Positions 42,679-49,292 of a stretch of DNA of 64,000 nucleotides are shown piece by piece; position 1 is the stretch's first letter; every line of letters starts with the position of its first letter. The stretch is taken from NCBI GenBank assembly GCA_963752715.1, contig CAVVZQ010000007.1, positions 72,215-136,214 on the forward strand, written 5' to 3'. Position numbers and translations under genes: made by a program. The notes beneath the pieces were generated by a model. That model saw only the letters and a program-made list of their open reading frames with translations, did not search any database and was not told the origin of the DNA. The DNA is from an uncultured Actinomycetota bacterium (GTDB lineage: Bacteria > Actinomycetota > Actinomycetes > Mycobacteriales > CAVVZQ01).

Positions 42679-42821
42679 CGTTGCCTCAGGGGCAACCAAC
42701 CTCACCCAGCCGTCTCTGCCGAGCGGCCTGCGCAGCGGCCGATCAACCGGCGCAAGGAGCTATGGGACCTGCATCCAGAGCGCTCATCGCGTCAAGGCCC
42801 ACGGCTACAGTGCCTTTCCGG

Positions 42822-44075
42822 TCACGGTCTCTGACTGCATGATTCCCGGACCCAACGAAGCGTAAGCCTGGTTCCTCCAAGAAGTGCCTGAGAGGGCCAG
42901 GTAAAACTGAGGTCAGTCTTGATTCCAAACTCCTTTGCTTTGCCGAATCCCAGCGGGCGTGTAAGGTCCACCGACCCGGCGTTCATTTCTACGTCGGCGA
43001 CCCTGCCATCTTGGATCTCAAGATTCGTTCTACCGCCTCCAACAGTGGGAACCGATACCTTCTTCCACCACTTGACTCTGGGTGCGGCTTCGAGCCGTAC
43101 CTGGACGCGGTTCATATCGATCGTCGCGTACTCGACCGAGAATTGGATCTCGTCGCAGTCGTCCCCGGTCCGCAGCACACCATTCGGCCTAGATGGGTCG
43201 GGCGCGAATGGATACCACTGTTCAATAAGATCAATATCGGTTGGAGATAAGTTGTTGTTGGGCTTCACGACCGGGCTTCCCGACTTGATCCAGTGGTCCG
43301 GAATCCAATAGTGCATGATGGAATCAGGGTCATATACGGAGTTCGTCGTTGTCGGGCCATCGTATTTTTCGAAAATGTTGCGATCTACCTCTTCTTTGGA
43401 CCATGTTTTCATTTCGTCGTAGACGACTTCTTTGTTCCATTCGTACGGCGCGCCGGGTGCCTGGTGTTCGTGGATCATGCCGAGAGCGTGTCCGAACTCG
43501 TGCAAGACGACCCGCCGCCACCGCTCATCGGTTGCGGGGGTGCCTTCCAAGCCGATCATCATCGTCGGCGAGTCGAACCGCCACCACTGTGTTGCTTGCC
43601 TCCCCAAAGCGGACCAACTCCTTCCGCCACTGTTGATCTCTACTCGAATATCGGCCGGATCATTTGCCCCCACGAATTCGAAGACAATATTTGCGTGCCG
43701 GGTCCACTCAAGGGCGATATCGCGAACTCTCTGCCTGAGAGGATCGGATCCTCCAGTCACTCGGACTCGCAGATGCTGTCCGATGCTCCACATTTCTCTG
43801 AGGTCCCCAGTCAGAGGCTGGGTGCTCTGCCCCCAGGTCTGAAATGTTCCATCCGCGGCAATTACGGGGTACTTGACCCGCAAGTCCTGGCGTTCTGGCA
43901 ATGACTGCCCGGAAGGGGGTACGTCCACGCAGTGCTCACCTTGCACGATCTCAGCAGGGGGCGACGGCTCGTCTGGGCTGACAGAGGGCGTTGCAGGAGA
44001 AATGCGCTTCTTGGACCGCCCCGGTAGCAGTCTGCCCAGACATCCGACGTTGTCCGAAGGGACTTGAGTTGTCAT
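42822..44075 (-). CDS. Astacin-signature (M12-like) zinc metallopeptidase with uncharacterised C-terminal domain; no signal peptide
   Basis: 'HEFGHALGMIHEHQ' (HExxHxxGxxHE) and Met-turn 'SIMHYW'. 'GGAGG' lies 5 nt before the ATG. Confidence 0.8.
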   Translation of the reverse strand: MTTQVPSDNVGCLGRLLPGRSKKRISPATPSVSPDEPSPPAEIVQGEHCVDVPPSGQSLPERQDLRVKYPVIAADGTFQTWGQSTQPLTGDLREMWSIGQHLRVRVTGGSDPLRQRVRDIALEWTRHANIVFEFVGANDPADIRVEINSGGRSWSALGRQATQWWRFDSPTMMIGLEGTPATDERWRRVVLHEFGHALGMIHEHQAPGAPYEWNKEVVYDEMKTWSKEEVDRNIFEKYDGPTTTNSVYDPDSIMHYWIPDHWIKSGSPVVKPNNNLSPTDIDLIEQWYPFAPDPSRPNGVLRTGDDCDEIQFSVEYATIDMNRVQVRLEAAPRVKWWKKVSVPTVGGGRTNLEIQDGRVADVEMNAGSVDLTRPLGFGKAKEFGIKTDLSFTWPSQALLGGTRLTLRWVRESCSQRP

Positions 44076-44179
44076 TGTGCCTCCTTGTCAATGAGAATAT
44101 GAATCGGAATGCGGCAGTAGGACTGCCGAATGGGTGAAAGATGCCGCTGAGTCAGATAGGTTCTTTGCTCGAGGCGGGT

Positions 44180-44443
44180 TCAGTGACTAGGTCGGACTTC
44201 GTCTCGTTGATGCACGCGTCCCTCGTCACCATGTGGTGCCCGCCGCAATGGATCTGGGATGAGGTACGAGAAGACGAAGGACAACAAGGTGGCCGTGGCC
44301 CCCGTCAACGCCGCGATCGCCGCGGCATCGAAGGTATCACTCCAGATCGAACCGACGACCGTCCAGACGATCAGCGCAAGTGCCGATCCCGCGCCTGCAC
44401 CCTTGGCCTTCGGCGACACGGGATTCGCGTGAGAAGTGCTCAT
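44180..44443 (-). CDS. Small two-TM membrane protein
   Basis: 'GAGSALALIVWTVVGSIW' and 'AAIAALTGATATLLSFVFSYLI'. 'GGAG' precedes the ATG. The ORF could extend 5' to 44653. Confidence 0.5.
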   Translation of the reverse strand: MSTSHANPVSPKAKGAGAGSALALIVWTVVGSIWSDTFDAAAIAALTGATATLLSFVFSYLIPDPLRRAPHGDEGRVHQRDEVRPSH

Positions 44444-44959
44444 GGTCGTGGTCAACTCCCTACTCAGAGTGCGAACCACTACAGAGTCCTCGAACCGCTG
44501 GACCAATCCATCAGTGATTCCACTGACTTCTACGACCCACTGCCGGAGGTGCTGCCGCCGAGATACCGACTTGAGGAGATCGCGATCTTGCAGACAGTCG
44601 CGAACTCGATGCGGAGCTATGAAGAGAGAGTCGCGGTGCGGATCACATCGCAAACCACCAACGCTTCACCCGGGAACTGTCCCGAGAGCTCCGGAACGAG
44701 AGGATCATCGGCCCCGGGACCCACGAACCGGACACGGCCAGCCTGCGGGCACGACGGTGCGCCGGGGGGAGAGGCGTCACGTGCGGCAACACAGACGCTG
44801 ACTGGCAGTCACCGACACGACGGGCTGGCGCAAAGCCCACGCCCCGTCCGCATCCATCGCAGGCACGCGTCAAGCACGCGGCCGGAGCGGGGAACGCGTT
44901 GCCGAGGCCGACGGCACGATAAGGCGAGCGCCTACAGGACGCAGTGAGTGCGGGTATAG

Positions 44960-47719: not shown

Positions 47720-47736
47720 AGTCAGAGGAGAAAGCG

Positions 47737-47946
47737 ATGTCGCCAGAGGACGTACGAAGCCTTCCCGTCGTCGTAGACCTGCCCACCGCCGCGAAGGCGC
47801 TCGGTGTCGGCCGCTACGTCGCCTACGAGATGGTCCGGCAGGACAAGTGGCCCACTCCCGTGATCCGAGTCGGCCGGCACATCCGAGTCCCTCGGGCCGC
47901 CCTGCTCGAGGTCCTCGGGATCGTCGACAATCCCAACGCTGCCTGA
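47737..47946 (+). CDS. xis: Excisionase-family DNA-binding protein
   Basis: 'DLPTAAKALGVGRYVAYEMVRQDKWPTPVIRVGRHIRVPRAALLEVLG'. Confidence 0.75.
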   Translation: MSPEDVRSLPVVVDLPTAAKALGVGRYVAYEMVRQDKWPTPVIRVGRHIRVPRAALLEVLGIVDNPNAA

Positions 47947-47967
47947 CGATCCAGCGAAGGGACCGAC

Positions 47968-49281
47968 GTGACCGGACGGGTCTACAAGCGCCCGCCCGCC
48001 CGCAAGGGTGGGCCGCCCCGGAGGCGACCATGGGCCTACGCGATCGAACTCGGTCGAGACAGCGAGGGAAACCGCGAAGTCATCAAGCGCGCCGGCTTCG
48101 CCACTCGCCGCGAGGCACAGCACCGGCTGAACCAGCACCTCAAGGATCTCCAGGACGGCTTCGACGACCGGCACGGCACCGTGACCCTGCAGGCCTTCCT
48201 GGAGGGTCAGTGGCTGCCCGGGCTGTCGCGGGTGCGGGACTCGACGAAGAGCTCCTACGAGCGGCACATCCGCCTCTACCTGTCCCCGCGCCTGGGCCAG
48301 CTGTCCCTCAACGAGCTCACGACGCCCCGCATCAACCACTTCTACGCGGAGCTGCTCGAATCTGGCGCCAAGAAGGGCACGCTCTCACCCACCTCGGTGC
48401 GCCGGGTTCACGCGACCCTGCACGCCGCACTGGCGGACGCGGTGAAATGGCGGCTCATCCCGACCAATCCGGCCAGTGGCGCCGAGCTCCCCCGCACCCG
48501 TCGTCACGAGATCACGACCTGGACCGCGGCACAGCTCTCCCGGTTCCTGGACCACAACCAGGACGACCCGACCTACCCGGTCTACGCGCTCATTGCGGCC
48601 ACCGGCCTGCGACGCGGCGAGGCTGCCGGGCTGCGCTGGCGCGATGTCGACCTCCAGCGTCGAACCCTCTCGGTGGTGCAGCAGATCGTTGACGTCTCCT
48701 ACCGAGTCAGTGTCGGCGACCCGAAGTCCCACAAGGGTCGGCGCACCATCGCCCTCGATGCCGCGACCGTCCGCATGCTGCACAAGCACCGCATCCGGCA
48801 GTCGACCGAGCTGGCAACGGTGGGCCTCGAGGCCGCCGTCTACGTCTTCACCCGAGCCGACGGCCAGCCCTTCCACCCGGACTACCTGACCAGTCACTTC
48901 TCTGTCATGGCGAAGCACGCCGGCGTCCCGGTCATCCGACTCCACGACCTGCGGCACACCCACGCCACCCTCGGACTCGAAGCCGGCGTGCCGCCCAAGG
49001 TCATGGCCGACCGGCTGGGCCACTCCACCGTCGTGCTCACTCTCGACACCTACAGCCACGTCGTCCCGGCGCTGGACGCGCAGGCCGCCGAGCTCATCGC
49101 CGGTCTGCTCGACCCGCACCGACAGTTGCACGCGCAAGGGGAACCATTGGGGAACCACGGCCCCCGAAACCGGTCTCAGAAAGGAGATCAGAACGATGAA
49201 ACCGCAGGTCAGAGTAGGTGGGGCGGGTGGGACTCGAACCCACGACCAAGGGATTATGAGTCCCCTGCTCTAACCGGCTGA
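47968..49281 (+). CDS. int: Tyrosine-type site-specific integrase
   Basis: 'HDLRHTHATLGLEAGV...GHSTVVLTLDTYSHV'. The last ~20 codons overlap the tRNA gene. Confidence 0.9.
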   Translation: MTGRVYKRPPARKGGPPRRRPWAYAIELGRDSEGNREVIKRAGFATRREAQHRLNQHLKDLQDGFDDRHGTVTLQAFLEGQWLPGLSRVRDSTKSSYERHIRLYLSPRLGQLSLNELTTPRINHFYAELLESGAKKGTLSPTSVRRVHATLHAALADAVKWRLIPTNPASGAELPRTRRHEITTWTAAQLSRFLDHNQDDPTYPVYALIAATGLRRGEAAGLRWRDVDLQRRTLSVVQQIVDVSYRVSVGDPKSHKGRRTIALDAATVRMLHKHRIRQSTELATVGLEAAVYVFTRADGQPFHPDYLTSHFSVMAKHAGVPVIRLHDLRHTHATLGLEAGVPPKVMADRLGHSTVVLTLDTYSHVVPALDAQAAELIAGLLDPHRQLHAQGEPLGNHGPRNRSQKGDQNDETAGQSRWGGWDSNPRPRDYESPALTG

Positions 49282-49292
49282 GCTACCGCCCC
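49219..49292 (-). tRNA. tRNA with CAT anticodon (Met; a lysidine-modified Ile2 cannot be excluded)
   Basis: The reverse complement folds as a cloverleaf: acceptor GGGGCGG/CCGCCCC, loop 'CTCATAA' and T-arm 'GGTTCGAGTCC'. CCA is not encoded. Confidence 0.85.

Follow-up and report, generated by a model that had tools for sequence, protein, structure and literature searches.

Remnants of integrative and conjugative elements of actinomycetes (AICEs) are already known. Sco3997 of Streptomyces coelicolor keeps genes for an integrase (int), an excisionase (xis) and a Kor regulator together with a truncated rep, and Sare1208 of Salinispora arenicola has no recognisable attachment (att) sites and is of indeterminable size (PMC2440964). 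Among complete elements, pSAM2 of Streptomyces ambofaciens carries korSA, pra, repSA-xis-int, attP, traSA, spd and pif. KorSA, a repressor of the GntR/HutC type, binds the promoter of its own gene as well as the pra promoter; pra lies downstream of korSA, and Pra in turn activates repSA-xis-int (PMC8584621). Here a 64,000-nucleotide (nt) stretch of DNA from an uncultured Actinomycetota bacterium (contig CAVVZQ010000007.1, positions 72,215 to 136,214; hereafter the window) is analysed, in which a gene of the uncharacterised DUF1152 family, a GntR regulator gene, a small helix-turn-helix (HTH) open reading frame (ORF), xis and int lie beside a tRNA(CAT) gene. The region is probably an immobilised mosaic remnant of a pSAM2-type AICE that integrated at the 3' end of this tRNA gene.

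With Sco3997 and Sare1208 the locus shares a tyrosine integrase, an excisionase and a Kor-type regulator beside a tRNA gene, with replication functions truncated or missing, but it differs from them in holding no rep fragment at all, in having a xis-int pair of another lineage than its Kor-type gene and in the pairing of that gene with DUF1152. The succession of GntR, small HTH ORF, xis and int toward a tRNA 3' att site is the order of pSAM2 minus repSA, and intact relatives of the GntR gene are associated with RepSA (PF20199) and an FtsK-type Tra. In contrast to pSAM2, there is no repSA, traSA, spd or Nudix gene, and the target is tRNA(CAT) and not tRNA-Pro. Two papers that give pSAM2 genes by name do not list DUF1152, a comparison of gene names and not of the pSAM2 sequence. 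Of the features that define an AICE, int with xis at a tRNA 3' end and a GntR-family Kor repressor are present, and paired att sites, a replication initiator (RepSA, RepAM or prim-pol), an FtsK/SpoIIIE Tra and a Nudix protein (Pif) are all absent from the window. The locus does have what characterises AICE remnants, namely int, xis and Kor kept with replication/transfer functions and/or att missing (PMC2440964). Two of the three features of a tRNA-associated island, the integrase beside a tRNA gene and the atypical composition, are seen as well; as to the third, absence from close relatives at that site, the relatives show an IS481-family element at the junction and no empty site. AICE remnants without att sites have been described before, and the locus itself is a further example: a strain-specific, immobilised remnant that sits at a tRNA hotspot, as do others catalogued for Streptomyces and Salinispora. 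What is modestly new is the tight Kor/DUF1152 pairing and the recurrence of a reduced layout, DUF1152 / GntR-xis-int, with unrelated integrases.

When JGI metagenomes were scanned with an alignment of DUF1152, 45 loci were obtained, and in 35 of these a GntR homologue lies directly upstream of and divergent from DUF1152, as in the window. Complete copies of these homologues are about 43-64% identical to the GntR of the window, and most of the loci without a visible GntR gene end too near DUF1152 to show its upstream side. The same pair also occurs in a Streptomyces angustmyceticus record. DUF1152 divergent beside GntR is therefore part of a regulatory module and not free cargo. A sequence-only reading of the window had called the region AICE-like, and the loci L052 and L023 bear this out. 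Both have the divergent arrangement of the window (GntR 53%, DUF1152 35-42% identical) and continue past GntR into a full AICE backbone of small ORFs, FtsK/SpoIIIE and RepSA (PF20199, 4e-155 and 8e-153), the latter two on the strand of GntR; L052 additionally contains a WhiB-like ORF, Xis and the first part of Int. They differ from the window in keeping the transfer and replication block and in their non-homologous cargo; the Int of L052 is just 29% identical to that of the window, and L023 ends before int. Part of the backbone is visible past GntR in L043, L056 and L034, small ORF c6 in all three and FtsK/SpoIIIE also in L043. In L048 and L054 the layout is reduced to DUF1152, then GntR, (xis) and int, with rep/tra absent, and thus matches that of the window, albeit on short contigs. 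Finally, the pair stands alone among metabolic genes in L028 (3861-5825; acyl-CoA dehydrogenase and P450) and L031 (5183-7122; aldo/keto reductase and cupin), which suggests that it outlives the mobile element that delivered it. In both loci the GC content at third codon positions (GC3) of the pair is lower than that of the neighbouring genes.

In a plasmid collection the best matches to the GntR protein were overwhelmingly the GntR genes of small Streptomyces plasmids, and in the two plasmids inspected (H60 and H61) this gene lies beside FtsK and conjugal-transfer genes. The GntR protein of the window can be assigned as the counterpart of Kor-type repressors on the strength of its predicted domains and of homologues that head RepSA/FtsK backbones. 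A candidate operator is the perfect palindrome GTGGACAAGTCCAC between DUF1152 and GntR, and the intergenic region of the S. angustmyceticus counterpart likewise holds a palindrome. Dyads of this kind are the type bound by HutC-type regulators. Copies of GTGGACAAGTCCAC with three mismatches occur at 47052, 47446 and 47773, all within 1.3 kb, although such matches are at chance frequency over the whole window (9 observed against 6.6 expected).

The DUF1152 family comprises 671 cluster representatives at 50% identity (E <= 1e-3). In DUF1152 the GGGGD motif at the N-terminus and several acidic positions are invariant. An AlphaFold2 model built on an alignment reached a predicted local distance difference test score (pLDDT) of 95.3, compared with 34 for the single-sequence model. 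Foldseek found no fold match for this model in the PDB, and profile searches of the PDB and Pfam, weak matches included, gave no functional clue; a relationship to FtsZ/tubulin, suspected from the GGGGD motif, found no support in these profile searches. Among the viral models of BFVD the only matches were DUF1152 proteins of giant viruses, and A0A3G5AD54 and A0A1V0SJT1, from Hyperionvirus and Klosneuvirus, have the same predicted fold. With DUF1152 as the nearly constant partner of the Kor-type GntR in a subfamily of pSAM2-like AICEs, this uncharacterised family gains a genomic context and a testable regulator.

As the sequence-only reading had stated, GntR, the small HTH ORF, xis and int are co-directional, all four reading toward the tRNA(CAT) 3' end, and Pfam and PHROGs support their identities, with the HTH match of the small ORF below threshold. 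The catalytic residues R, K, HxxR, H and Y of the integrase were all seen on inspection of its translation by eye, and the protein is apparently intact. Its gene has a host-like GC3 of 0.84, and the C-terminal tail runs across the junction into the tRNA gene, overlapping it by 65 nt, close to the 60 nt or so estimated earlier. The excisionase also matches TIGR01764, at 25.2 bits and so below the cut-off of 28.8. The 126-amino-acid (aa) HTH ORF had no match in the plasmid collection (tblastn) and no homologue in the 45 DUF1152 loci, and may be an analogue of Pra by position only. The closest counterparts of Int and Xis lie in three islands beside tRNA-Lys (L001-L003), with 52-56% identity for Int and 57-67% for Xis, the match of the latter being the small ORF that precedes int. 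There too int reaches the tRNA 3' end or extends into it, but the tRNA is another one, the cargo is of defence type (methylase, Vsr, helicases, DUF1156) and neither GntR nor DUF1152 is present.

Three relatives (L004, L009 and L061) define the right end of the element. Their DNA is collinear with and ~92% identical to positions 49210-53506 of the window (blastn), with SulP, Abhydrolase_9, a 116-aa gene and a tRNA(CAT) of identical sequence in common, and they have no int at the corresponding position. Homology with L004 ends at the tRNA 3' end and with L009 7 nt past it (TACTCTG), at 49210. This loss of homology at 49210-49217 shows that the element lies on the left side of the tRNA, with its right junction at about 49210. 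Comparison with related genomes, which had been proposed as a means of defining both ends, therefore settled the right end; the left end was not obtained. In all three relatives an IS481-family insertion sequence (domains LZ_Tnp_IS481, HTH_32 and rve) starts exactly 7 nt past the tRNA (L004, 4619-6167; L009, 4361-4440; L061, 4267-4899), split in L004 after 33 nt by an IS3-family element, and because the contigs end there the relatives are uninformative on the left flank. The start of IS481 in the relatives coincides with the start of the island in the window, and the 3' junction of tRNA(CAT) is thus an insertion hotspot. A metagenome DNA scan with the relatives' sequence beyond the tRNA gave no match, its query being the end of the IS481-family element and so uninformative on the native flank. 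Homologues of the flanking Abhydrolase_9 that are 88% identical lie on short metagenomic contigs, scans of genome contigs with this protein (single protein and two-sequence alignment) gave no match, and more distant relatives with ~50% identical Abhydrolase_9 show no synteny on the tRNA side.

The junction has features in common with the tRNA-Lys islands. The motif CCGCAGGTCAGAG at 49202-49214, on the island side of tRNA(CAT), recurs at the same position in L001 and partly in L003, and CCGCAGGT(CAGA) stands directly before the tRNA in the window, L001 and L003 alike. Two phased copies of GGGGAACCA lie 60-80 nt from the tRNA, beyond the part of int that encodes the catalytic domain; in L001 and L003 the equivalent position is taken by analogous tandem repeats (TTAGCCAC...). 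By their placement, the GGGGAACCA repeats and the CCGCAGGT motif are inferred to be candidate P'-arm (arm-type Int-binding) and core-proximal sites of this integrase family. No further GGGGAACCA copy was found elsewhere in the window, and this lack of a matching P-arm fits loss of the distal end. Such features, recurring across tRNA targets, could aid the annotation of att sites. The 13-mer CCGCAGGTCAGAG is seen again at 53877-53889, inverted and 3 nt from the 3' end of a tRNA-Asn gene (53893-53968(-); blastn-short E 0.09), a copy that could be due to chance or be a relic of another integration.

Searches for the missing parts of an AICE were negative throughout. The sequence-only reading had noted the absence of rep, FtsK/Tra-like and Nudix genes, and indeed Pfam detected no Rep, FtsK/SpoIIIE or Nudix domain in the sizeable ORFs of 34-49 kb or, within the left 34 kb, in the larger ORFs, nor did tblastn with two RepSA proteins and the Tra, c6 and WhiB-like proteins of L052 and L023 find a match in the whole window. 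Spd genes were not encountered either, although this is a weak test as Spd proteins are poorly modelled. The tRNA 3' region, for which no second copy had been seen between 34 and 49 kb, has none of at least 14 nt in the full 64 kb, whether searched by exact k-mers, with mismatches allowed or by blastn-short; to the left nothing better than 10-mers was seen, as is expected by chance. In the tRNA-Lys islands the 6-10 kb upstream of int yielded no att repeat, and the expected att length could consequently not be calibrated from them. A prophage was rejected, since PHROGs matches are confined to int, xis and GntR and there are no phage structural, packaging or lysis genes; scans of viral contigs with GntR and Int and of a phage collection with GntR gave no match. 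PADLOC found nothing relevant to a defence system.

Table 1. Features of the tRNA(CAT) island and of the DNA to its left, in window coordinates.
Feature	Position	Strand	Basis and remarks
LuxR/GerE remnant, 34 nt	34812..34845	+	94% copy of the LAL gene 3' end (42602-42635); just past the WS/DGAT stop codon
LAL-type regulator	39734..42678	+	AAA_16, TPR, GerE
M12A metallopeptidase, 417 aa	42822..44075	-	Pfam Astacin above cut-off; motif HEFGHALGMIHEH (HExxHxxGxxHE)
Small ORF with two transmembrane segments (2-TM)	44180..44653	-	C-terminal half consists of two hydrophobic segments; no family matches
Lipoprotein-like ORF	44960..45433	+	Signal sequence then Cys, Pro-rich linker; no family above cut-off
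DUF1152 protein	45470..46561	-	Pfam E 1e-68; divergent from GntR
Perfect palindrome GTGGACAAGTCCAC, candidate operator	46589..46602	.	In the 61-nt DUF1152/GntR intergenic region
GntR/HutC (UTRA) regulator	46623..47378	+	Pfam GntR and UTRA domains
Orphan 126-aa ORF	47339..47719	+	HTH_17 E 9e-4, below Pfam cut-off; true start uncertain
Excisionase (Xis), 69 aa	47737..47946	+	HTH_17 29.6 bits
Tyrosine integrase, 437 aa	47968..49281	+	Pfam PF00589 Phage_integrase, SAM-like, Arm-DNA-bind_4; phrog_1
Tandem GGGGAACCA x2, 11-bp phase	49138..49157	+	60-80 nt from tRNA, after the integrase catalytic domain
Right (int-proximal) junction	49202..49216	+	L009 homology from 49210; blastn against L004 and L009
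tRNA(CAT) target gene	49217..49292	-	ARAGORN; Rfam tRNA 74.8 bits; 3' end faces the integrase

Taken together, the locus would have retained the int-proximal junction, the integrase, the excisionase, the small HTH ORF at the position of pra and the Kor-type GntR gene with DUF1152, and would have lost the distal att site and the genes that separate GntR from xis in intact relatives (small ORFs, FtsK/SpoIIIE translocase, WhiB-like gene and RepSA). Such an element would neither replicate nor transfer, nor would it be expected to excise without a second att site, in agreement with its earlier description as decayed or non-self-transmissible, since rep, tra and attL are all absent from the window. 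By analogy with KorSA, GntR probably acts at the intergenic palindrome as a repressor of its own gene and of DUF1152, perhaps also of HTH-xis-int. The nearest relatives of xis-int are found in the tRNA-Lys defence islands and Int is distant from those of L052 and L054, which makes the remnant a mosaic of two modules. The genes for the M12 peptidase, the 2-TM protein and the lipoprotein-like protein would be unrelated accessory DNA, either carried downstream of DUF1152 or acquired separately.

Translations, Pfam and a PDB match support the earlier description of the genes to the left of GntR as a DUF1152 gene, a lipoprotein, a 2-TM protein and a leaderless astacin-signature protease. The further proposal that this cargo forms one functional unit is not supported, as DUF1152 alone is linked, and to GntR, while the M12, lipoprotein-like and 2-TM ORFs have no homologue in any of the 45 DUF1152 loci. 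Two Streptomyces records likewise have DUF1152 without an adjoining M12 peptidase. In L052 the low-GC block after DUF1152 encodes an ECF sigma factor, a PASTA protein and a peptidase A4, none homologous to the cargo of the window, and indicates that cargo in that position is normal for this type of element. The M12 protein lies in the lowest-GC segment and has no N-terminal hydrophobic leader or signal peptide. Its residues 84-289 match myroilysin (PDB 5gwd, 1e-34; also 5czw and 5zjk), the catalytic domains being alignable over about 200 residues that include HExxHxxGxxHE, but it differs from myroilysin in the missing signal peptide, in its N-terminal 90 aa and in an extra C-terminal ~125 aa that match nothing. 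Its homologues in plasmids are annotated as M12 family and are spread over phyla. The true start of the 2-TM ORF is probably Met71 at 44443, and its exact sequence was absent from the protein collection.

Composition and clustering show the island to be of foreign origin. The window has a GC content of 69.2%, compared with 60.4% at 42679-45469, and GC counts made by hand for the sequence lines starting at 43321 and 43261 (45% and 57%) were exact at 45.0% and 56.7%. GC3 is 0.64-0.75 in the island genes against 0.82-0.92 in core genes, and tetranucleotide anomaly peaks at 42.5-45.5 kb, over the M12, 2-TM and lipoprotein-like ORFs, with a second peak at 35-38 kb. Clustering at 90% left GntR, xis, M12, the LAL-type regulator and the ORF at 36.0-36.7 kb as singletons; Int was joined by one 154-aa fragment only and DUF1152 by a single 94% relative (P0268, on a 9.8-kb contig). 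The flanking genes are widespread, the 116-aa protein being found on ten contigs and the cluster of the Abhydrolase_9 relatives holding six sequences from six contigs.

The variable region thus spans at least 42.7-49.2 kb and plausibly 34.8-49.2 kb, that is about 6.5 to 14.5 kb. Its left boundary could be at 42.7 kb or at 34.8 kb, or could have been lost by deletion, and no att remnant was found at either position. The LAL-type regulator, which may lie inside the variable region, has a 1-nt frameshift near 42495-42510 that puts the AAA_16/TPR body and the GerE HTH in different frames, and its closest homologues besides itself are 54% identical. The LuxR remnant that had been reported at 34.8 kb is real, being a partial copy of this gene. 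Just to its right a perfect 13-bp stem (GGGGCGTCCTCCC ... GGGAGGACGCCCC) at 34989-35030 has, by its sequence, the look of a terminator that separates the WS/DGAT gene from the atypical segment at 35-38 kb. Low GC3 is seen in a PASTA-domain ORF (35197-36315(-)), an orphan 214-aa ORF (36011-36655(-)) and an isochorismatase fragment (38244-38825(-)), with frame changes at 38-39.6 kb. The 35-38 kb segment and the isochorismatase fragment may be older island debris. A blastn search of 34.8-39.7 kb against plasmids gave no match, and the PASTA proteins at 35.2-36.3 kb and in the L052 cargo are not homologous to each other.

Several observations weigh against a decayed AICE. No empty site was seen in any of the three relatives, as IS481 occupies the junction and the contigs then end, and the Int of the window is just 29-31% identical to the Ints of DUF1152-bearing contigs (L052 and L054). 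No repSA or tra fragment is left between GntR and xis, and with nothing surviving, deletion of rep/tra is deduced by comparison only; the GntR and int modules could have come together in a copy that never carried rep/tra. Equally, the reduced layout is met again, with different integrases, in L048 and L054 and could reflect functional design instead of repeated decay. The locus would then be a working minimal element, DUF1152 / GntR-(HTH)-xis-int, that never needed rep/tra, excises and is mobilised in trans and has a distal att site that is short, diverged or outside the window. The apparently intact integrase with its host-like GC3, the conservation of the phased arm-type-like repeats and the tRNA-Lys islands, similarly without a nearby att repeat, would all suit such an element, but it is an improbable explanation: the att identity segment of an AICE overlaps the tRNA 3' end and is 43-44 bp in one example (PMC2440964), whereas the 64 kb contain no second copy of this region as long as 14 nt and the arm-type repeats have no other copy in the window, and L048 and L054 are short contigs that may be incomplete. 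Somewhat less improbable, if still doubtful, is a broader proposal in which Kor-type GntR and DUF1152 form a self-contained, ligand-controlled module of a pSAM2-type AICE subfamily, kept through decay or alone, with DUF1152 as a new enzyme that has a kil, exclusion or host-interaction function under Kor control and DUF1152 / GntR-xis-int as a real minimal integrative element.

The strongest competitor to the decayed AICE concerns its extent. Only 45.5-49.2 kb, from DUF1152 to int, might derive from the element, with the M12/2-TM/lipoprotein genes, the LAL-type regulator and the 35-38 kb segment being independent acquisitions or older chromosome, and with an attL just left of DUF1152 destroyed by later insertions. 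We regard this as possible, though clearly the less likely view. The composition is uneven, with the int module near host values and 42.5-45.5 kb the strongest outlier; M12, lipoprotein, 2-TM and LAL genes never recur with DUF1152/GntR; and the LuxR remnant, the LAL frameshift and the isochorismatase fragment attest to local decay and rearrangement. However, the low-GC cargo after DUF1152 in L052 is compatible with a single element, and there is no att remnant at about 45.45 kb. The search for attL reached 49 kb to the left of the tRNA on a source contig of 544 kb, a further point against the AICE remnant, and with no attL in the window a large island or integrative and conjugative element of more than 49 kb, its attL past the left window end, might be envisaged. 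This is very unlikely given that 0-34 kb holds ordinary chromosomal genes of host-like GC3 (CorA, glutamine synthetase, acyl-CoA carboxylase subunits, ferritin and alcohol dehydrogenase) and no transfer or replication genes. The notion that the integrase belongs to an element on the right of the tRNA, raised earlier as a way in which the island might be disproved, is refuted by the three relatives, in which 49210-53506 is collinear and ~92% identical without int there, and by the tRNA 3' end facing int; nothing was found in its favour.

The target tRNA(CAT), annotated as Met, may instead be a lysidine-modified tRNA-Ile2, judging by its sequence: it is identical at 59/76 positions to what we take to be the Escherichia coli ileX sequence, compared with 52/77 for metT (elongator) and 50/77 for metY (initiator). 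To its right, the Abhydrolase_9 gene of the window (50035-51546(-)) is probably a pseudogene or an assembly error, as ~129 nt are missing at ~50404 relative to the three ~92% relatives and the last ~120 residues of the protein cannot be aligned with homologues. A distant relative (L005, GCA_942492495.1) has an int, xis and Prim-Pol element (14939-17079) a few kb from Abhydrolase_9, and this element is unrelated to that of the window (Int 29% identical). In the left part of the window there are an eCIS_core-domain ORF (12450-13808(+)) and an ArsA/ArsD arsenic-resistance pair (18938-21179(-)).

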